Below, piece by piece: positions 4,689-26,265 of a DNA stretch of 64,000 nucleotides. Source of the DNA: Escherichia coli (GTDB lineage: Bacteria; Pseudomonadota; Gammaproteobacteria; Enterobacterales; Enterobacteriaceae); assembly GCF_003790525.1 (NCBI RefSeq), contig NZ_CP033635.1. The stretch is one strand, 5' to 3'. The stretch's first letter is position 1. The number at the start of each line of letters is the position of its first letter. A program made the translations under genes and the position numbers. A model generated the notes under the pieces. It was not told the DNA's origin. It saw only the letters and a program-made list of their open reading frames with translations, and did not search any database.

Positions 4689-5585
4689 TTAAATCTCCGT
4701 CAAGCGTTGCGTTTCTGTGGTTCCAGTTGTAACTGGACGTTCATTGAGCGAAGGAAACTCCAGGGTATCTGCTAATGCTGCAAGATCGCTTTCAGCTAAA
4801 TCGGGCGACCGTTCTTCTACGGCTGGACTGATGCTCATGACAAAGCGCACCGTCTCTTCGATGCCAGTATGGCGCAGATAATGTTTGAGTTTTTGGGTCG
4901 GATACCAGTCGGACTCTCCCGACAGACTGCTGTCTTCGGCCAGAAAGCCTTCCTCCTGCAGCAGTTGTATCCAGCGCGTTGCCATTTCTGTTTGCGAGCG
5001 AATACTTGAGACACGCCCTACCTTTTCGTCGTGTATACGGGGAATACGTTCTTCCTGCACAAACCTGGCCGCCATAAGTAGGCCATCTACGGTATCGTCA
5101 CCCTCGGCCTTGCGCTGGGCAATCACCTGGTCGGCAACATTATTGAGCCTGGCTACCACCGAGGCGGCATTAATGGCGTTACTCTGACCGAACTCGACAC
5201 GAACGGTGTCTGGAGTTGGAAACAAATCAGCCAGCAACGCAATCAGAGTTAAGCCTGCAAACAGGCGCTGTTCTTTCCGTTCCTTACCCTGTTGCTCAGC
5301 CATTGTTTCAGGTAGCAAGCGTTTGTTCAGCCAACCCAAAGATGGGGAAAACGGACCTCGGCCATCTGCAGCCAGTAATACCCCGTAGGTCTCATGAATC
5401 CCAAGATACCGCAATTTCATACCTGTCGCGACGCCACGGATAATCTCTGTGAACAGGGCATCACCTTGCAGATCAAGAGCACGTTGAATCAGCTCATCCC
5501 CCATTTTATATCCCAGTGAATTCATAATTGCCTGCGTGGCAATCTCGGCGTAGCGTTTAGTTTGTTGATGCGCGTTGTCGTACAT
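4689..5585 (-). CDS. Middle subunit of the SMC-like operon (KITE/JetB/MksE-like by position and size)
   Basis: 298-aa ORF tightly packed (2-3 bp spacing) between the kleisin-like and SMC-like genes; no motif confirmed. Confidence 0.4.
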   Translation of the reverse strand: MYDNAHQQTKRYAEIATQAIMNSLGYKMGDELIQRALDLQGDALFTEIIRGVATGMKLRYLGIHETYGVLLAADGRGPFSPSLGWLNKRLLPETMAEQQGKERKEQRLFAGLTLIALLADLFPTPDTVRVEFGQSNAINAASVVARLNNVADQVIAQRKAEGDDTVDGLLMAARFVQEERIPRIHDEKVGRVSSIRSQTEMATRWIQLLQEEGFLAEDSSLSGESDWYPTQKLKHYLRHTGIEETVRFVMSISPAVEERSPDLAESDLAALADTLEFPSLNERPVTTGTTETQRLTEI

Positions 5586-8594: not shown

Positions 8595-9500
8595 TTACAA
8601 TACCAGTCCAACCCTCAGCTTACTGCAATGCCCATCAAGAGGGATGGTCCACATTGACGTATCAAAATCGCTCTCTGACCAGCGAGCAAAACGCAGCTCA
8701 CTGGATCGAATAAAGATAAGCAGAGTGAGTTCTGTCGCCCAGCGGGTTAGCGGCCTGCCGGTATAGCTGTCTATTTTCTCAAGTAACTCAGGGATGCGCT
8801 TTAACTCCAGCGCCGGACGATGCTGTCGATTACTGGAAGCAACCGCCCCCGCCATCTCCTGCGCCGGATTGTAATGAATTAACCCGCTTTGCACTGCATA
8901 ACGCATGATGGCCGTGGTGCGCTGTTGAAGGCGGGAAGCCACTTCAAAACGTCCAGATTTCTCCACGGCTTTAATGGGAATTAACAGATCGCGGGTGCCC
9001 AGTTCAGCAATATTGCGAGCACCAATTGTTGGGAAGATATTGTCCTCCAGGCTCTTTTTTCCACGATTAGCATGATCTTCCGACCATTTTTGGTTTGTCA
9101 CGAGCCACTCTCTGGCAACCTTCTCGAAAGTAATAATCTCTTTCGCCTGCTCTTCTTTCACAGCACGTTTATGCTCACGAGGATCGATACCAGCAGCGAC
9201 CAGCTTTCTGGCCTCTTCCCTTTTCTTCCGCGCATCCGCCAGCGAAACATCCGGGTAAACGCCGAACGCCATCAAATGTTGTTTACCACCAAAACGGAAA
9301 CGAAATCACCAATACTTTGAACCGCCAGGTTTTACAAGTAAAGACATGCCGTCGCCGTCAACAAGTGAATACTCTTTCTCCTCTGACTTCACAGAACGAA
9401 CTTTAGTATCCGTTAGGGCAATAATGGTCTTCCTTCCATTGGTATCTCGTGAGTATACAAGCAATATCGAATCGGCAAATATACTCATAAGTATACTCAC
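8595..9500 (-). pseudogene. P4-type tyrosine integrase, frameshifted and lacking the catalytic C-terminal domain
   Basis: ORFs 9306..9500 and 8595..9275 together align with the N-terminal ~260 aa of the intact integrase at 19562..20827 (LTDTKVRSVK, FGVYPDVSLADAR, IMRYAVQ, SSELRFARW); ends just after WTIP. Confidence 0.85.
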
Positions 9501-9608: not shown

Positions 9609-9622
9609 TATTTACATACTTT

Positions 9623-9641
9623 TGGTGCGAAGGCCGGACTC
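9623..9641 (-). other. tRNA 3'-end-like remnant; probable att direct repeat at the junction of the two islands
   Basis: TGGTGCGAAGGCCGGACTC resembles the leuX 3' end TGGTGCCGAAGGCCGGACTCGAACC (one indel, one mismatch). Confidence 0.5.
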
Positions 9642-10179: not shown

Positions 10180-12513
10180 TCAGGCTGTTGCAGGGTCGTC
10201 ACATTTTGGCAGCCAGTCGCCGTAGCTTTCCTCTTTCAGCGTCAGGTTGGTCTGTATCCCCTGTTTGGTATGGCGCTTCTCGTAATTCAGTCCGTATTCC
10301 TTCAGCATCACCGGCAGCCCCAGCCCGAACATTTTCAGACTGAGTACATTCCGGTAGCCGTTTGCCTCCATGTAGGCCAGATAGGCGTGATAGAGGTATT
10401 TACGGTAATTGCGCGGGATGATACTGGCGTTCCCCATATACATGCCGCTGGTCTGCGGCAGGGTTTCCAGATAGCCGATAAAATCAAACGTCGGGTCGGC
10501 ATCCCGTTTGATGTTCAGTGCCTCGTCTGAGTTCTGCTGGGACTGAAGCAGTGACCGGGCGAGCATCGGGTCGCTGAACTTCTGCATCAGGTGACGCACG
10601 ATGACCGCCAGCTCGCGGGTGATTTTGTCCTTAAGCTGCGGGTCGCGCTCCTGCGGGGCTATCTGTTCCGGGAAGTGAATAATCACCCGCCGGCGTGACA
10701 CGCCGCCGCTGCGGTCGGTGAAGCGCATCGGGTTATTGTTCACGGCCAGAATTACCGCCGGGATATGCGTGGAGTATGCATCCCGGTATTTCGGGTCAAC
10801 GGACACCGCATCGCCGCCGGTGATGGCCTTGAGTCCGGCACCGTCGCCGCTCCATTTTTCCTGGTCCGGCAGGCGTATCAGTGAGAAGCCAGTTAACGCG
10901 GCACGTTCACGCGGGGATTCCAGCGTCTCGATGGTGGCCGACGTGGCGTTATCCTCCCCGGCCAGCAGGGTGGCTATTTCGGCCATGATACTTTTGCCGC
11001 TGCCGCCGGGACCGGTCACCTCCAGAAAGAGCTGCCAGTCGTAGCGGTTTGCCAGCACCATAAACAGTGCGGCCAGAATCACGTCGCGTTTTTCCGCACG
11101 GCCACCGGCGGCACGGTCAAGCCAGCACCAGAACGCGGGGGCGTGGGTCTCCAGCGTTTCACCGTCCACCGGCGGGGTGAAATCCACATCGCACAGGGTG
11201 CGCATCCAGTGTGACGGACTGTGCGGGTGGAACGTGCCGTTCTGCGTGTCGAGCACGCCGTTACGAAAGCCAATCAGGCGGCGGGAGGGGGCTTCCTGCT
11301 GCGGAATAATCAGCTTCAGGGTGTCCACCACGGAGGCCACCTTCCCGGAGGAGAACGGCGCGCGCAGACGCTGAAACAGCCCGGCCACATCCCGGGCAAA
11401 GTCCTGTGGTGGCAGCACCTTCCAGACACCATTTTCATAACGGGACAGAAGCTGGCCGTTGGCATCGACCGCGAGCGCCTCGCCGTAATGCTCATAGATA
11501 CGCATGGCCTTTTCGCTGGTACTCATGGCGGAAAACTCCGCTTCACTCATGGTGTCGAACGGGCTTTCAGCCGGTGGCCGGATGGCATCGTAAATGGCCT
11601 TACGGGTGGCCTCCCCGCCGTACTGCGTGAAGGCATCATTCCAGTCACCGAAGACCGGTGGCAGGGCAACAACACCTTCACACGCATCTGCGGCTGCGGC
11701 GGCTTTTTTCTGGCCATCACCGCTGAGGTCACGGTCAGCGGCAAGGACAATCTGACAGGCGGGGTGCTTCTGCCGGGCAAGGCTGGCCAGAGAAAGGAGG
11801 TTCACGGAAGAAAGCGCCACCATCACCGTTTCACCGGTCAGGTGATGCACGGTAAGTGCGGTCGCGTATCCCTCCGCTATCCACAGACGTTTTCCGGCCT
11901 GATTCTGTCCTTCAAGGATGTGACAGGTGCCCCTGACCTGTCCGCCTTTCAGGGTGCGCTTACGGCCGTCAGCACTGATTAACTGAAGGTTAACCAGTTC
12001 GCCGCTGTCGTCATACAGTGGCACCACAAGGTCACCGGCGCGCCAGCTCACGCCACCGGCTCTGTGTGTGCCGGTCAGCATCCGGCATTCCCGGCCGGGA
12101 AAGCCCTTGCGGGTCAGGTAGGCGTTACCGGTTCCGGGACGGGTTTTCGCCATCAGGGTTTGTGCCAGTGCGGCGGCGTTCTTCCGGGCAGCGTCTGTTT
12201 CAGCACCGGCGGCAGCCGTCACTGCCGGGTCAGCCGGGGGCAGGCTGCCGGTCACGGCAGCCACCTTTGTGGCCGCGTCGGACGGGGAGACACCAAACAC
12301 CTTTTCAACCAGTTTCAGGCCGTCACCGGCACCACACTGATTGCAGTACCAGGTGCCGCGCCCCTCCCTGTCATCAAAACGGAAGCGGTCACTCCCGCCA
12401 CAGACCGGACAGGGCTGATGACGGTTCTTCAGCACCTGAATCCCCAGCGCCGGGAGAATACGCGGCCAGTGGCCGAGCGCATGGCTGACGGTGGCGGTTA
12501 CGTTCATTTTCAT
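10180..12513 (-). CDS. P4 alpha-type primase-helicase
   Basis: 777 aa (the length I recall for P4 alpha); N-terminal zinc-binding CPVCGG...CNQCG; P-loop GPGGSGKS. Confidence 0.9.
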   Translation of the reverse strand: MKMNVTATVSHALGHWPRILPALGIQVLKNRHQPCPVCGGSDRFRFDDREGRGTWYCNQCGAGDGLKLVEKVFGVSPSDAATKVAAVTGSLPPADPAVTAAAGAETDAARKNAAALAQTLMAKTRPGTGNAYLTRKGFPGRECRMLTGTHRAGGVSWRAGDLVVPLYDDSGELVNLQLISADGRKRTLKGGQVRGTCHILEGQNQAGKRLWIAEGYATALTVHHLTGETVMVALSSVNLLSLASLARQKHPACQIVLAADRDLSGDGQKKAAAAADACEGVVALPPVFGDWNDAFTQYGGEATRKAIYDAIRPPAESPFDTMSEAEFSAMSTSEKAMRIYEHYGEALAVDANGQLLSRYENGVWKVLPPQDFARDVAGLFQRLRAPFSSGKVASVVDTLKLIIPQQEAPSRRLIGFRNGVLDTQNGTFHPHSPSHWMRTLCDVDFTPPVDGETLETHAPAFWCWLDRAAGGRAEKRDVILAALFMVLANRYDWQLFLEVTGPGGSGKSIMAEIATLLAGEDNATSATIETLESPRERAALTGFSLIRLPDQEKWSGDGAGLKAITGGDAVSVDPKYRDAYSTHIPAVILAVNNNPMRFTDRSGGVSRRRVIIHFPEQIAPQERDPQLKDKITRELAVIVRHLMQKFSDPMLARSLLQSQQNSDEALNIKRDADPTFDFIGYLETLPQTSGMYMGNASIIPRNYRKYLYHAYLAYMEANGYRNVLSLKMFGLGLPVMLKEYGLNYEKRHTKQGIQTNLTLKEESYGDWLPKCDDPATA

Positions 12514-13800: not shown

Positions 13801-14298
13801 CACCGGCGACGGTGCGAAGCATGCAGATACGGGGATGACGGTCTGCGCGACGGACAGCCGCAAACACAAAGACAAATTCAGGGTGTGAGGGGGTAAGGGT
13901 TGTAGCCATAAGGCAGCCTCCTTCGAGTAGCAAATAACTGCTATCGCCGGAGTTCTCACGCTCGATGGCGATAGCCCAGACGGGGGTGAGAATACCGGCC
14001 TCGAAGAATACCGGCCAGCCCGGAGGCTGCCCCGCCTGAGCTACCATTGACTCAGTGGCATAACATGCGATTGCGAACAGGATAATACCTGCACGGCAAA
14101 CCACACGCCACACCATAATCTGGCGCTCTGTGGCGTTGATTGCGACACAAAAAAAGACGCATGGCGCGTCATATGTCGCCTTCGAGTTACACGGGTTCTC
14201 ACGCCCGGCTGCCGATTTTGCGGCAACGGAAAGACTATATCCGCAAATGCCGGAAAAAGGCAAGCCAGAAAAAGGGAGTTTTTGCAGAGCGGGCATCA

Positions 14299-14565
14299 TC
14301 ATGCGTCATACCCCCGTTTGCGTCCGGCAATGCGGCCGGCCATCCATGCGGTGACTTCAGAGTGCAGCCAGGCCACATTTTTACCGCCAAGACTCACCTG
14401 CGGCGGAAATTCCCCCTTACGGATGAGTTCGTAGATGGTCGAGCGTGACAGGCCGCACAGGTGCATCACTTCCGGAAGACGCAAAAAACGCTCCTGTGTG
14501 ATGTCCGGCTGCGGCATCAGTGGCGTCACAGGGGCGGGAGACGGGGAAGAAAAAACAGCTTGCAT
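14299..14565 (-). CDS. AlpA-family phage transcriptional regulator / excisionase-like protein
   Basis: 88 aa; HTH segment [27 protein letters not shown] typical of the AlpA family. Confidence 0.75.
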
Positions 14566-14844
14566 CGGGCTACCTCGTTAATGTCCATACAGCACCGGAT
14601 AAGTCTGTCCGGCTTCGGGTAGCGCTTTATTTTGTGAATATTTTCAGCAGACGCAACAGGGGGGATTTGTTCCGGCAGCCTTACAATGCTTGTGTGTTTT
14701 TTGTTCATCTCCACTTAAAGTCATTTAAAGCCACTTAAAGCAATTCGTAATTTTTATAGTGAAATACAAATCGTTTTTTCTTATTCATTCCCGGCGAATT
14801 AATAAAAACAAACAGTAGTAAACAGCACAAAAAGCCCATCAACG

Positions 14845-14950
14845 GGTGAACAGTGGTGAACAGACGGTGAACAGTCATTACTGCGATTGTTCACCCTTTA
14901 ACTTACTGTATTACTTATCTTTTTTCTTATGGCGAACAGAGGTGAACAGT
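14845..14950. repeat. P4 ori-like iteron cluster (at least 5 GGTGAACA/TGTTCACC octamers)
   Basis: GGTGAACAGTGGTGAACAGACGGTGAACAG, then TGTTCACCC, then GCGAACAGAGGTGAACAG; about 4.7 kb from the crr-like repeats. Confidence 0.65.
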
Positions 14951-15117
14951 AAAATATAAAAAAACAAACAGTAAGACGGTTTTTCCTGCGACCTTTTCCT
15001 GGCTTGCCGGTGTGAGGATGAGTCTCCTGTGTCAGGGCTGGCACATCTGCAATGCGTCGTGTTGTTGTCCGGTGTACGTCACAATTTTCTTAACCTGAAG
15101 TGACGAGGAGCCGGAAA

Positions 15118-15852
15118 ATGTCTGACAACACCATCCCTGAATATCTGCAACCCGCGCTGGCACAACTGGAAAAGGCCAGAGCCGCCCATCTTGAGAACGC
15201 CCGCCTGATGGATGAGACCGTCACGGCCATTGAACGGGCAGAGCAGGAAAAAAATGCGCTGGCGCAGGCCGACGGAAACGACGCTGACGACTGGCGCACG
15301 GCCTTTCGTGCAGCCGGTGGTGTCCTGAGCGACGAGCTGAAACAGCGCCACATTGAGCGCGTGGCACGCCGGGAGCTGGTACAGGAATATGACAATCTGG
15401 CCGTGGTGCTGAATTTTGAACGCGAACGCCTGAAAGGGGCGTGTGACAGCACGGCCACCGCCTACCGGAAGGCACATCATCACCTGCTGAGTCTGTATGC
15501 AGAGCATGAGCTGGAACACGCCCTGAATGAAACCTGTGAGGCGCTTGTCCGGGCAATGCATCTGAGCATTCTGGTACAGGAAAATCCGCTCGCCAACACC
15601 ACCGGGCATCAGGGCTACGTCGCACCCGATAAAGCTGTCATGCAGCAGGTGAAATCATCGCTGGAACAGAAAATAAAACAGATGCAAATCAGCCTCACCG
15701 GCGAGCCGGTTCTCCGGCTGACCGGACTGTCAGCGGCAACACTCCCGCACATGGATTATGAGGTGGCAGGCACACCGGCACAGCGCAAGGTGTGGCAGGA
15801 CAAAATAGACCAGCAGGGAGCAGTGCTTAAGGCCAGAGGACTGCTGTCATGA
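15118..15852 (+). CDS. sid: P4 Sid-like capsid size-determination protein
   Basis: 244 aa from the ATG at 15118 (RBS GAGGAG); followed by delta and psu in P4 order. Confidence 0.7.
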   Translation: MSDNTIPEYLQPALAQLEKARAAHLENARLMDETVTAIERAEQEKNALAQADGNDADDWRTAFRAAGGVLSDELKQRHIERVARRELVQEYDNLAVVLNFERERLKGACDSTATAYRKAHHHLLSLYAEHELEHALNETCEALVRAMHLSILVQENPLANTTGHQGYVAPDKAVMQQVKSSLEQKIKQMQISLTGEPVLRLTGLSAATLPHMDYEVAGTPAQRKVWQDKIDQQGAVLKARGLLS

Positions 15853-17368: not shown

Positions 17369-19501
17369 ATGCTTTCTACTCAGGATATAAACGGTTTTTT
17401 TAATGCTGTTGACTCTCTCAAAAGGTTTAAACGAGCAGAAATAAGGGACAACAAAGATAAACCACTTATTGATTCACTTTACACAGATCTATTGCCAAAC
17501 AATCACGTCTTCAAAATGTGCTACGGGGAAAACACTACATTTTTAATTGGAAGAAAAGGCACAGGAAAATCCACAATAATTCTTAAACTTGAAAGTGAGT
17601 ACAGAAAAGAATCTTCATACCTCCCATGCTATATAGATACAAAAACAGTATTCGAAAGTGTTAGAGGTGAGTATCAAAAAATAGACTACCTAAAAGGGAA
17701 GATACCTGAAGAGCATCTAGAAAAATATTTAGTCGAGCGTGCATTCATTAAAAACATCTTGAAATCAATCGGTGACGAATTGAATATTCGAGCAGAAAGC
17801 ATATTCTCAAAACTAGCAGGGATTGTTAATGCAAGCAAAAAACAAGCGGTAAAAGCAAAAATAACAAAACTACTTTTAATGGTGGACAATAACCAAATAA
17901 TAAAAGAAATTGAAATACCCGTAATAACAGAAGTAAATACTAAACTTACTAAGGCGAACGAATCAGAAAATGGAACTACCCAAAACTATAACTCTGAGCT
18001 AACTGTAAAAATCGGAACATCACAACATGAAGGTGGTGGAAAAATAGGAGCGGTAAAAGGAATCACCTCAAGACAGAAAAACAATGACGCTTGGGAAAAG
18101 AGTTTCTCTACAGCCCTTCTAAAGGTTTTTCAAATCACATCAGTAATTGAAGAAATTAAAATCATATTAAGAGAGCTAGGAGTAAAAAAGCTTGTAATAT
18201 TTTTAGACGATTTCTCTGAAGTTGAAGAGAAGACGCTAAAAAACTTCGTCGATGTTGTACTTGCTCCGCTAAATAACTGGGCTAATGATTTCATTTGTTT
18301 TAAAGTCGCTGCCTACCCAAGTCGCATATATTATGGCGACATTGATGTTGGCAAAATAGATGTGGTAAATTTAGATTTTTATAATTTATATTCTAATTAT
18401 GATAAATCTACGATGGAATCCTTATCAGCTGACTTCACCAAGAGACTTTTAAATCAAAGGCTTAATCAGTTTTGCACATTGAAGTTTGAAGATTATTTTG
18501 ATACATCTTCAGCTACTCCAGAAGAGTACTATGATCTTATATTTAAAGTATCCATGAATGTCCCTAGAATTATAGGATACATTCTTTATTACTGCCATCA
18601 AACCAATGTATCTCTTGGCAGAAAAATAAATAAAGGCTCAATCGAGAAAGCAGCTCAGACTTATTATGAGCAAGTTGTATCTAAGTTTTTCGATATTGCC
18701 ACGCATAGTCTGATGTCTTTCAGTGAAAAAGTTTCTGAACTTCAGCAAAAAGAGATTCTAAATCTCTTCGTTCAGAAATTAAAAACGATTAAGCGACAAA
18801 TAATAACAAATGAACTAACTGGCACAATTTACAATAGAGACAGAACAAATCCTTATTGTAGTCATTTTTATTTTCAACCTAATCTTGAACATTTTCTGCG
18901 TACATTGGAGCTTAATTTCTTCATTACCAAATATAATGAATTAGTAAATAAAGACGGAAACAAGGTCTCGATATATGGAATAAATTATGGATTAGCTCGA
19001 AGTGAAAACCTCAAATGGGGAAAACCTGAAGGTAATCAGTTCCGTAGTTATTTCGTAGAAAGACCATTTGATTTCAACAAAGATATCGAAGATTTCTTAA
19101 GAGAATCGAAAAAAATCGTATGTCTTAATAGCTCTTGTGATAAAACCTATCCATATGAAGAACTTGCATTTCTTGAATATAATAAAATGAGATGTATTGA
19201 ATGCCAGTCGCCTGTTGAAGTAAGATCGTTTTCTGAAAGTATCAGTTCTGAAATATCTAAAATTGACAACGCTAAACTTTTACCAAAATTAGAATTAATG
19301 ATATTACATGAACTGAATAAGGCAGACGATCATCTCCTAGCTCGAGACATTGCTGAGGAACTAGACGCTTCATCACAATTAATTGCCAAACGGGCTGAAA
19401 AATTAGACAGAAAAGGTCTTGTTTTTAGAGATAAAAGTGATGCATTAATTAAGTATTCAATAACAAATAAAGCAGTAGAAGGTTATTTCTATGATGACTA
19501 A
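17369..19501 (+). CDS. Uncharacterised P-loop NTPase with C-terminal zinc ribbon and wHTH-like tail; sole cargo gene of the P4 cos-int slot; candidate anti-phage protein
   Basis: 710-aa ORF; RBS GGAGA 7 nt upstream; Walker A GRKGTGKST (res 61-69); Walker B-like LVIFLDDFSE (res 275-284); C-x4-C-x18-C-x2-C near res 585-610; terminal wHTH-like segment; visibly AT-rich versus flanking genes. Confidence 0.85.
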   Translation: MLSTQDINGFFNAVDSLKRFKRAEIRDNKDKPLIDSLYTDLLPNNHVFKMCYGENTTFLIGRKGTGKSTIILKLESEYRKESSYLPCYIDTKTVFESVRGEYQKIDYLKGKIPEEHLEKYLVERAFIKNILKSIGDELNIRAESIFSKLAGIVNASKKQAVKAKITKLLLMVDNNQIIKEIEIPVITEVNTKLTKANESENGTTQNYNSELTVKIGTSQHEGGGKIGAVKGITSRQKNNDAWEKSFSTALLKVFQITSVIEEIKIILRELGVKKLVIFLDDFSEVEEKTLKNFVDVVLAPLNNWANDFICFKVAAYPSRIYYGDIDVGKIDVVNLDFYNLYSNYDKSTMESLSADFTKRLLNQRLNQFCTLKFEDYFDTSSATPEEYYDLIFKVSMNVPRIIGYILYYCHQTNVSLGRKINKGSIEKAAQTYYEQVVSKFFDIATHSLMSFSEKVSELQQKEILNLFVQKLKTIKRQIITNELTGTIYNRDRTNPYCSHFYFQPNLEHFLRTLELNFFITKYNELVNKDGNKVSIYGINYGLARSENLKWGKPEGNQFRSYFVERPFDFNKDIEDFLRESKKIVCLNSSCDKTYPYEELAFLEYNKMRCIECQSPVEVRSFSESISSEISKIDNAKLLPKLELMILHELNKADDHLLARDIAEELDASSQLIAKRAEKLDRKGLVFRDKSDALIKYSITNKAVEGYFYDD

Positions 19502-19561: not shown

Positions 19562-20827
19562 TTAGATCCTAGCAAAATCATAGGCCGTAATATTTTGATA
19601 TCGATTAATATCTAGATAGTCAGCCCACCATTGCATCATCAAACGACGCTCTTCTAAATGCTCTGAAGTATGAATATAAGCTGCGCGTACATTGTTACGT
19701 TCTGAATGGCTCAATTGACGTTCTATCGCATCATCACTCCATAGTCCCGATTCCCCCAACGCCCCGCGTGCCATAGTCCTAAAACCATGGCCACATACTT
19801 CTGTTTTTGTGTCATATCCCATTACACGCAATGCATTGTTTACCGTATTTTCACTCATAACCTTAGTTGCGTCATGATCGCCCGGGAAAAGAAAGTCTCT
19901 ATCACCACTAATCTGCTTAAGCTGTTCTAACAATATAATCGCCTGTCGGCTAAGCGGAACTATATGCTCCTCTTTCATTTTCATGCCACGATACGAGTAA
20001 CGTACGCCTTTAATTTCTTCTCGTTTAGCAGGAATACGCCAAGTAGCGTTATCAAAATCAAATTCTTTCCAACGAGCAAAACGTAATTCACTTGAACGAA
20101 CAAAAGTTAGTAAAGAAAGCTCAACCGCAATTTTCGTCATCATACGCCCACGATATACATCAAGACGTGCCAAGAACTCATGGAAACGATGTGATGGTAG
20201 CGCCGGGTAGTGCCGCGTTTTCGCCGTAGATAACGCACCGGCCATATCAATTGCAGGATTTGAGTCTACATAATCGTTCTGAACAGCATAGCGCATAATA
20301 GCAGTGACACGTTGCTGAAGACGCTGCGCTACATCATGCTTACCACTGGCATCAACTTTTTTTATCGGTGCCAAAAGGTGACTAGTTTTAAGCTGTCGAA
20401 TATCAGACGAGCCAATATAGGGAAAGATATAAAGCTCTAGATAGCGAAGAACCCGTGCCCGATGTTCCTCACTCCAACGCTTATTGCTGGCATGCCATTC
20501 ACGAGCAATAGTTTCAAAATTATAAGCACCAGCATTAACTGCTTGGGCCTCTTTCTGTACTGCTTTTGGATCTATACCTTGCACCAGCAACTTTTTGGCT
20601 TCATCCCTTCTAGCTCTAGCTTCAGCAAGCGTCACAGTCGGCCAAACACCAAAAGCAAGACGATCCTCTTTTTTGTCGGAAGGTCGTCTATATTTCATAC
20701 GCCAATATTTAGAGCCTTTGACAGAAACCTCGAGGTACAAACCGCCACCATCGGCCATTTTATAGGTTTTATCTTTTGGCTTTGCGGTCTCGACCTGTCT
20801 GGCGTTGAGCTTCATTTGGGGGCACAT
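19562..20827 (-). CDS. int: P4-type tyrosine integrase, intact
   Basis: 421 aa; adjacent to the tRNA-Leu 3' end; conserved HGFRT motif and C-terminal catalytic region. Confidence 0.9.
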   Translation of the reverse strand: MCPQMKLNARQVETAKPKDKTYKMADGGGLYLEVSVKGSKYWRMKYRRPSDKKEDRLAFGVWPTVTLAEARARRDEAKKLLVQGIDPKAVQKEAQAVNAGAYNFETIAREWHASNKRWSEEHRARVLRYLELYIFPYIGSSDIRQLKTSHLLAPIKKVDASGKHDVAQRLQQRVTAIMRYAVQNDYVDSNPAIDMAGALSTAKTRHYPALPSHRFHEFLARLDVYRGRMMTKIAVELSLLTFVRSSELRFARWKEFDFDNATWRIPAKREEIKGVRYSYRGMKMKEEHIVPLSRQAIILLEQLKQISGDRDFLFPGDHDATKVMSENTVNNALRVMGYDTKTEVCGHGFRTMARGALGESGLWSDDAIERQLSHSERNNVRAAYIHTSEHLEERRLMMQWWADYLDINRYQNITAYDFARI

Positions 20828-20978
20828 CCCTAATCGAAGTTAAGATGCCCCCAATTATGCCCCCAATGACATCCGGATTTCAACGTACAACCTCGGACGA
20901 CTCGGGACGTTAAAATCACTGCAAGCATTGATTTTTAAGGAATTATTGGACTTTCTCGGATGGTCTAGGAAGTGCTTA

Positions 20979-21063
20979 TGGTGCCGAAGGCCGGACTCGA
21001 ACCGGCACGTATTTCTACGGTTGATTTTGAATCAACTGCGTCTACCGATTTCGCCACTTCGGC
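20979..21063 (-). tRNA. leuX: tRNA-Leu (anticodon CAA)
   Basis: 85-nt cloverleaf on the minus strand (GCCGAAGTGGCGAAATCGGTAGACGCAGTTGATTCAAAATCAACCGTAGAAATACGTGCCGGTTCGAGTCCGGCCTTCGGCACCA). Confidence 0.95.
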
Positions 21064-24116: not shown

Positions 24117-24881
24117 ATGAACGATCTATTTTCACTGGCAGGAAAAAATATCTTGATTACCGGTTCAGCACAGGGCATTGGCTATTTACTGGCAACCGGC
24201 CTGGGTAAATATGGCGCACAAATAATTATTAATGATATTACTGCCGAACGCGCAGAACTTGCTGTAGAAAAACTCCACCAGGAGGGTATTCAGGCCGTTG
24301 CCGCACCTTTTAATGTTACTCATAAACATGAAATTGATGCCGCCGTTGAACATATCGAAAAGGACATCGGCCCCATTGATGTGCTGGTGAATAACGCCGG
24401 TATCCAGCGCCGTCATCCTTTTACTGAGTTCCCTGAACAAGAGTGGAATGATGTGATCGCAGTAAACCAGACCGCCGTGTTCCTGGTATCGCAAGCGGTA
24501 ACTCGTCACATGGTTGAACGCAAGGCAGGTAAAGTTATTAATATTTGCTCGATGCAAAGCGAACTGGGACGTGACACCATCACCCCTTATGCCGCATCGA
24601 AAGGGGCGGTAAAAATGCTCACCCGCGGCATGTGCGTCGAGCTGGCGCGCCACAATATTCAGGTCAACGGTATTGCGCCGGGCTATTTCAAAACAGAAAT
24701 GACTAAAGCACTGGTTGAGGACGAAGCCTTCACCGCCTGGTTGTGCAAACGGACCCCCGCCGCACGCTGGGGAGATCCGCAGGAACTGATTGGTGCTGCG
24801 GTGTTCCTTTCTTCAAAAGCCTCTGATTTCGTAAACGGCCACCTGTTGTTTGTTGATGGCGGCATGTTAGTGGCTGTTTAA
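24117..24881 (+). CDS. idnO: 5-keto-D-gluconate 5-reductase (SDR family)
   Basis: 254 aa; TGSAQGIG Rossmann motif; SDR fold. Confidence 0.8.
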   Translation: MNDLFSLAGKNILITGSAQGIGYLLATGLGKYGAQIIINDITAERAELAVEKLHQEGIQAVAAPFNVTHKHEIDAAVEHIEKDIGPIDVLVNNAGIQRRHPFTEFPEQEWNDVIAVNQTAVFLVSQAVTRHMVERKAGKVINICSMQSELGRDTITPYAASKGAVKMLTRGMCVELARHNIQVNGIAPGYFKTEMTKALVEDEAFTAWLCKRTPAARWGDPQELIGAAVFLSSKASDFVNGHLLFVDGGMLVAV

Positions 24882-24945: not shown

Positions 24946-26265
24946 ATGCCATTAATCATTATTGCGGCAGGCGTCGCGCTGCTTCTTATCCTGATGATCG
25001 GCTTTAAAGTTAACGGCTTTATTGCCCTCGTTCTGGTCGCTGCCGTCGTCGGATTTGCCGAAGGGATGGATGCACAGGCCGTCCTGCACTCTATACAAAA
25101 TGGTATCGGCAGCACGCTCGGCGGGCTGGCAATGATCCTCGGTTTCGGGGCCATGTTAGGCAAGCTGATTTCTGATACGGGCGCGGCACAACGTATCGCC
25201 ACTACGCTGATTGCTACTTTTGGTAAAAAACGCGTGCAATGGGCGCTAGTGATCACCGGTCTGGTTGTCGGCCTCGCCATGTTTTTTGAAGTGGGTTTTG
25301 TCCTGCTGCTGCCGTTGGTATTTACCATCGTGGCATCATCTGGATTACCCCTGTTGTATGTTGGCGTACCGATGGTAGCAGCGCTCTCTGTAACCCACTG
25401 TTTTCTGCCGCCACATCCAGGGCCTACTGCCATCGCGACTATCTTTGAGGCTAATCTCGGAACGACTCTACTGTATGGATTTATCATTGCCATTCCGACA
25501 GTTATTGTCGCAGGACCGCTGTTTTCTAAACTGCTAACTCGCTTTGAGAAAGCACCACCGGAAGGCTTATTTAATCCTCATCTGTTTAGCGAAGAGGAGA
25601 TGCCCTCCTTCTGGAACAGTATTTTCGCTGCAGTGATCCCGGTCATCCTGATGGCTATCGCCGCCGTTTGTGAAATTACGTTACCGAAAACTAACACCGT
25701 GCGCCTCTTCTTTGAATTTGTCGGTAACCCTGCCGTTGCGCTGTTTATTGCCATTGTTATTGCGATTTTCACACTGGGCCGACGTAATGGACGCACCATC
25801 GAGCAAATCATGGATATCATTGGGGATTCTATAGGCGCTATCGCGATGATTGTGTTTATTATCGCTGGCGGCGGCGCGTTTAAGCAGGTATTAGTAGATA
25901 GCGGTGTCGGGCAGTATATTTCACACTTAATGACCGGAACTACACTTTCGCCGTTATTGATGTGCTGGACTGTTGCGGCGCTGTTGCGTATCGCTCTGGG
26001 CTCTGCCACCGTCGCGGCCATTACCACCGCGGGTGTGGTGTTGCCGATTATCAACGTTACCCATGCCGATCCCGCTTTAATGGTACTGGCAACTGGTGCG
26101 GGCAGCGTGATCGCGTCACACGTAAACGACCCTGGCTTCTGGCTATTTAAAGGGTATTTTAATCTGACGGTTGGTGAAACGTTGCGTACCTGGACGGTGA
26201 TGGAAACCCTTATTTCTATTATGGGTTTGCTGGGCGTGTTAGCCATTAACGCCGTATTGCACTGA
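24946..26265 (+). CDS. idnT: GntP-family L-idonate/gluconate transporter
   Basis: 439 aa, highly hydrophobic; operon position. Confidence 0.8.
   Translation: MPLIIIAAGVALLLILMIGFKVNGFIALVLVAAVVGFAEGMDAQAVLHSIQNGIGSTLGGLAMILGFGAMLGKLISDTGAAQRIATTLIATFGKKRVQWALVITGLVVGLAMFFEVGFVLLLPLVFTIVASSGLPLLYVGVPMVAALSVTHCFLPPHPGPTAIATIFEANLGTTLLYGFIIAIPTVIVAGPLFSKLLTRFEKAPPEGLFNPHLFSEEEMPSFWNSIFAAVIPVILMAIAAVCEITLPKTNTVRLFFEFVGNPAVALFIAIVIAIFTLGRRNGRTIEQIMDIIGDSIGAIAMIVFIIAGGGAFKQVLVDSGVGQYISHLMTGTTLSPLLMCWTVAALLRIALGSATVAAITTAGVVLPIINVTHADPALMVLATGAGSVIASHVNDPGFWLFKGYFNLTVGETLRTWTVMETLISIMGLLGVLAINAVLH

Follow-up and report, generated by a model that had tools for sequence, protein, structure and literature searches.

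The Cox protein of phage P2 recognizes the consensus TTAAA(G/C)NC(A/C), termed the cox-box, and its sites comprise at least six boxes whose starts lie 10-11 bp apart, with at least 70 nt protected (PMC3936717; PMC5009727). [quoted passage not shown] PMC3936717 credits the Cox site at PLL to Saha et al. 1989, and a remark in the GenBank record of P2 (NC_001895) states that cox activates the P4 late promoter. The Cox protein of phage WPhi recognizes other repeats and does not activate P4 (PMC5009727), a failure which shows that the interaction between Cox and its site is sequence-specific. Efficient binding of the related Apl protein needs at least three adjacent operators (PMC7498355).

The DNA analyzed here, a 64-kb stretch from Escherichia coli (the window), carries a P4-like prophage at leuX. 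Positions 14200-15200 are 97.2% identical to satellite phage P4 (X51522 8665-9665), the alignment runs without gaps at a constant offset of 5535, and the gene order is that of P4: crr, alpha, orf106, orf151, vis/orf88, ori, sid, delta, psu. Vis is a protein of 88 amino acids with a match to the Pfam family Phage_AlpA (E=7e-21). No P2-like helper genes were found in the 64-kb window. Between vis and sid lie three tandem decamers (Table 1), the first and third of the same sequence and the second deviating from them at two positions. Tandem Repeats Finder reports a period of 10 and 3.1 copies at 14711-14741. The motif YCAYTTAAAG occurs four times in the window, three of these occurrences forming the tandem array; a triple tandem decamer (up to two pairwise mismatches) is found nowhere else in the window, and in none of 200 first-order Markov resamples. 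Decamers with up to two mismatches elsewhere in the window display neither enrichment nor clustering near the att sites. A sequence-only reading had described three tandem 10-bp repeats about 150 bp upstream of the minus-strand alpA-like start, between that gene and ori-like iterons. The repeats are confirmed by the sequence, Tandem Repeats Finder and the resampling, and the placement is equally accurate: the gene start at 14565 is 146 bp away, and the GGTGAACA iterons begin at 14845.

The array is real but already known. In the P4 records X51522 and NC_001609 an "ori type 2 repeat" is annotated at 9176-9185, 9186-9195 and 9196-9205, inside the rep_origin feature, and P4 9176-9205 corresponds exactly to window 14711-14740 with identical bases. 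The older P4 record X02534 has the decamers entered as direct repeats 3/3'. At an identity of 95% or more, 440 of 5426 complete E. coli genomes contain the P4-type cassette, by which we mean the segment around the array delimited in Table 1.

Table 1. Features of the P4-like prophage and of the region between vis and sid (window coordinates)
Feature	Position	Strand	Basis or remark
attL core	9622-9641		
alpha	10180-12513		
vis (orf88), AlpA-family excisionase/regulator	14299-14565	-	first gene of the PLL transcript
Block GGTAGCNCTNTATTTTGTGAATATTTT, with inferred PLL core promoter	14618-14644	-	alignment
PLL Delta/Ogr activator box TGT-N12-ACA, TGTTCCGGCAGCCTTACA	14669-14686		sequence; -55 spacing from P2 late promoters
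Candidate weak flanking cox-box TTCATCTCC	14704-14712	+	7/9; 11 bp before box 1
Variable cassette	14709-14752		swapped for other 10-11-bp-phased arrays in related satellites; flanks 92-96% identical
Three decamers, P4 "ori type 2 repeats" (X51522 9176-9205)	14711-14740	+	identity
Decamer copy 1, CCACTTAAAG	14711-14720	+	sequence
Decamer copy 2, TCATTTAAAG	14721-14730	+	sequence
Decamer copy 3, CCACTTAAAG	14731-14740	+	sequence
Cox-box 1, TTAAAGTCA	14715-14723	+	9/9 to TTAAA(G/C)NC(A/C)
Cox-box 2, TTAAAGCCA	14725-14733	+	9/9
Cox-box 3, TTAAAGCAA	14735-14743	+	8/9
Candidate weak flanking cox-boxes TTATAGTGA and TGAAATACA (at 14754 and 14760)	14754-14768	+	7/9 each
Six type 1 iterons GGTGAACA of ori1	14845-52, 14855-62, 14866-73, 14888-95, 14931-38, 14941-48		gap-free P4 alignment
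Psid (divergent late promoter) TGT-N12-ACA box	15029-15046		sequence
sid	15118-15852		
Integrase	19562-20827		adjoins attR/leuX
attR core	20979-20998		inside tRNA-Leu(CAA) (leuX)

Several features of the prophage lie apart from the array. In the fifth type 1 iteron of ori1, T has become C at 14933, giving GGCGAACA versus GGTGAACA in P4. P4 ori1 is inactivated when a single iteron is lost, and the change may therefore leave the prophage origin weakened. The accessory hotspot between psu and int holds an ORF of 710 amino acids (17369-19501, plus strand) whose N-terminal part gives weak P-loop hits and whose C-terminal part gives a winged-helix hit (MarR-like, CARF-associated wHTH), all below curated cut-offs; it may be an uncharacterized defense gene. 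Just outside attL, at 8595-9500 on the minus strand, a second P4-family integrase is present in fragments (ORFs of 226 and 64 amino acids), and the attL core is 1 nt shorter than attR by a deletion. Together the integrase fragments and the attL deletion look like the remnant of an earlier leuX island.

Shifting the frame by four bases turns the decamers into TTAAAGTCA, TTAAAGCCA and TTAAAGCAA, which fit the published Cox consensus closely. The box starts are exactly 10 bp apart, in agreement with the published spacing of 10-11 bp. Two points speak against a Cox site: beside three strong boxes there are just three candidates matching at seven of nine positions, all within 14704-14768, whereas six or more boxes per site are given in the literature, and the window has no P2-like helper gene. 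No other cluster of at least three cox-boxes (up to one mismatch) is found in the whole P4 genome. The boxes lie on the plus strand, rightwards of the Delta box of PLL, while PLL and vis run leftwards, so that the published orientation facing away from the promoter is reproduced. Local alignment of the cassette with the P2 Pc operator (GCACTAAAAGGCATTATAAGACATTAAACGCAATTCATGA) gives z=9.6, and 8.2 in a second sampling, with the flank GCAATTC common to both; the P2 attP Cox site reaches z=3.2, and all other sampled helper operator types z of 2.5 or less. The array very probably constitutes the high-affinity core of a P2 Cox binding site on the satellite, through which PLL would be activated, and we infer that the window copy behaves like that of P4. 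The role of the array as a target of helper Cox is not new either: it has been published since 1989, and annotation of the repeats in P4 dates from about 1990.

The sequence-only reading had seen in the repeats a regulator-binding array of the satellite control region, with the AlpA-like protein or Delta as ligand. Its assignment of kind and location stands, whereas the choice of ligand does not. Binding of the array by the satellite's own Vis or by Delta, with autoregulation of PLL or Psid, would accord with the position of the array between these two promoters, both of which Vis reportedly regulates (work of Polo, 1996). Vis moreover belongs to the winged-helix proteins of the excisionase type, which bind direct repeats spaced by one helical turn (PMC7498355). 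Against this, the Vis proteins of the satellites E2865 and Res13 are 99% identical to that of the window, with an identical helix-turn-helix and wing, whereas their cassette is unrelated, at only 48-50% identity between flanks of 92-96%. A cassette that changes wholly while Vis remains unchanged is unlikely to be a Vis-specific site; a conserved Vis would be expected on the conserved leader and not on a hypervariable segment. Nor does the cassette resemble the arm of attP on which Vis acts (z=0.9 against P4 3927-4078). As for Delta, its TGT-N12-ACA boxes are found elsewhere, one of them 25 bp to the left of the array and the other at Psid, and no such dyad lies within the decamers. Either of these ligands is thus most unlikely. 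We also observe, in the attR arm beside int (20872-20910; P4 3970-4010), CGGA units spaced 10-11 bp apart, CCGGATTTCAA CGTACAACCT CGGACGACT CGGGAC, and the conserved PLL leader (14590-14615) likewise has CCGGAC/TCCGG motifs. These motifs are plausible Vis boxes, which would locate the binding of Vis elsewhere than on the decamers.

The GenBank label suggests another function: as type 2 repeats inside the rep_origin of X51522 and NC_001609, separated by about 100 bp from the type 1 iterons, beside an AT-rich stretch, the decamers might serve in P4 replication as a working element of the origin, with the alpha primase-helicase or a host factor as their ligand. Satellites exist that have the same type 1 iterons without these repeats, which speaks against a requirement in replication. 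Alpha is said to bind the type 1 iterons only (Ziegelin, in 1993), and a 123-bp minimal ori1 from which the type 2 repeat segment is excluded reportedly suffices for replication (Tocchetti, in 1999). Searches on P4 Vis and PLL, on the ori iterons and on Apl with P4 returned no direct source on the type 2 repeats. Overall, a role in the origin appears very unlikely. That the array is a functionless tandem repeat, made by chance or slippage, could be argued from its shortness and its mere three copies, but it is almost certainly wrong in view of the resampling result, the agreement with the experimentally defined cox-box consensus and the presence of the P4-type segment at 99% identity or more in 252 E. 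coli genomes.

Binding by helper Cox, the reading we prefer, requires the array to be placed relative to PLL. A sigma-70 consensus scan of 14500-15150 found no promoter, as one would anticipate of late promoters that depend on an activator; PLL was therefore located through its Delta box. In the annotated P2 late promoters the center of the Delta/Ogr box precedes the start by 55-58 bp, and the same spacing would put the PLL start near 14622 and hence the three cox-boxes at about -92 to -120. The 17-nt core of the PLL block, TATTTTGTGAATATTTT, is invariant. In the proposed sequence of events, a P2-type helper would express its early operon, including cox, and Cox monomers would load cooperatively onto the three TTAAAGNCA boxes in head-to-tail order, each turn of the helix taking one monomer. 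Binding probably extends rightwards, away from PLL, over the weaker boxes (candidates at 14754 and 14760). The Cox filament so formed, bent or wrapped as the literature describes, would sit some 90-120 bp upstream of the leftward PLL, facing away from it and leaving the promoter free, and PLL would be switched on without the satellite's own Delta protein, likewise as published. Transcription from PLL would then lead to expression of vis and of the replication/derepression operon. We propose that, with PLL activation dependent on Cox, the satellite stays dormant until a suitable helper becomes active.

When the vis-sid intergenic region of the window is aligned with those of P4 and of five diverged P4-like elements from E. 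coli, the PLL block, Psid and the type 1 iterons are conserved, but 14709-14752 is replaced. The sequence-only reading had named absence from homologous elements as a refutation, and the motif is indeed missing from many homologous satellites, where other arrays are found instead. This absence does not mean that the array is non-functional, because other 10-bp-phased arrays take its place. We surveyed the cassette in 120 P4-like IMG/VR loci, picked by the conserved PLL block, and added at least four Enterobacter/Citrobacter satellites from among the matches listed for TATTTTGTGAATATTTT, most of these matches being chance AT-rich ones. The 64-80 nt at the cassette position form about 31 clusters, nearly all of which are direct-repeat arrays phased at 10-11 bp. 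For comparison, helper operators were taken upstream of Cox/Apl genes (236 loci, 33 clusters), and every cassette cluster was compared with every operator cluster. With z-scores calculated from mononucleotide shuffles, given as the best of 33 comparisons and inflated by the alignment of repeat on repeat, the P4-type cassette has its best match in the P2 Cox operators (z=8.2), and most other cassettes, with TGGCAAAC, TGACAATC or TGGCC units, match 186 Apl operators (z=5-12). The Apl-like units agree with the Apl sites annotated in phage 186, and matches of this type include most of the Enterobacter/Citrobacter satellites and many IMG/VR contigs. Two genomes appear in both the satellite and the helper lists, and both are matched—in one a P2 Cox helper accompanies a P4-type satellite, in the other an Apl helper an Apl-type satellite—although two cases are anecdotal and too few to count.

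Two cassette types that are common in the satellites sampled lack a counterpart among the sampled helpers. The E2865-type cassette occurs in 16 loci and, out of 5426 complete E. coli genomes, in 373; it has no match among the helper operators sampled (z<2.5), and BLAST against phages returned only chance hits. Part of it forms a palindrome, CCAGA-N14-TCTGG, and it contains CTGGAAGG/CTGGAAAA direct repeats (L004 1641-1694). A likeness of this type to the 12-nt repeat of WPhi Cox (CTNRAARGG) was noticed by eye and set aside as weak, post hoc and not significant. The GGACTGGAAGG-type cassette (11 of the 120 IMG/VR loci; L296 about 5065-5110) likewise has no match among the sampled helper operators.

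Taken with the specificity of WPhi Cox, the matches between cassettes and operators suggest that the cassette of about 45 bp might be a swappable sensor of helper type, which would copy the Cox/Apl operators of P2-like helper lineages and decide which helper wakes the satellite. We put this forward tentatively, as a possibility somewhat short of an even chance. A helper-sensing cassette was not described in the searchable literature, older P4 work lying outside that reach, and the main survey of P4-like satellites never mentions Cox. If the cassette does set helper specificity, satellite-helper pairings would be predictable from sequence, the failure of WPhi Cox to activate P4 would be explained, and the cassette would provide a compact swappable part for helper-triggered genetic switches. 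For the window itself the array is of little import beyond confirming that the satellite is of P4 type and tuned to helpers of P2 type; the diversity of the cassette is a lead that deserves a separate look, while the decamer array is ordinary.

The survey yielded three further observations. Among the best 80 of 277 IMG/VR contigs the 186 Apl protein keeps 97-100% identity, yet its upstream operator arrays divide into about 15 clusters by sequence: the operators drift around a conserved protein. One IMG/VR satellite (cassette GCTTTAAATGACTTTAAATGGCTTC) has P2-type cox-boxes reversed relative to PLL, the reverse complement being CCATTTAAAGTCATTTAAAGC, and would be informative on the published view that a Cox filament grows in a direction set by the orientation of its boxes. 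In the satellite of E. coli AR_0151 (L008 1-1500), the IS21-family element ISEc12 replaces everything to the left of the position equivalent to window 14754, and vis, PLL and the cassette are therefore gone from that copy.

Of the known systems, P4 is the closest. Its array and that of the window have no base differences, and the neighbors (vis, Delta box, type 1 iterons, Psid and sid), orientation and distances are equal; the single difference in the cassette flank is at 14746, C here versus T in P4, and the window copy resides in a leuX prophage with a different accessory gene. The P2 Pc operator (NC_001895 about 25954-25981) and the attP Cox site (24399-24472) have the same box consensus, 10-bp phasing and direct repeats as the satellite array, and the Pc operator shares the cassette's flank on its 3' side. 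The P2 boxes overlap Pc and repress it, or sit in attP for excision, whereas the satellite boxes are located upstream of a promoter and, according to the literature for P4, activate it. The satellite boxes fit the consensus better (9/9, 9/9 and 8/9) than P2's own (8/9, 7/9 and 9/9). The Apl operators of phage 186, with seven sites at pR-pL and five at attP, are direct repeats 10-11 bp apart as in the array, and Apl is a dual excisionase and regulator that binds cooperatively to at least three adjacent sites. Its architecture is thus the same as that of the Cox array, but the TGGCAAAC-like recognition sequence is missing from the window cassette and takes the same position in other P4-like satellites. 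The X1-X1.5-X2 sites of lambda Xis are likewise three head-to-tail sites one helical turn apart, bound by a winged-helix recombination directionality factor (PMC7498355); these serve recombination at attR, in contrast to promoter activation on a foreign element.
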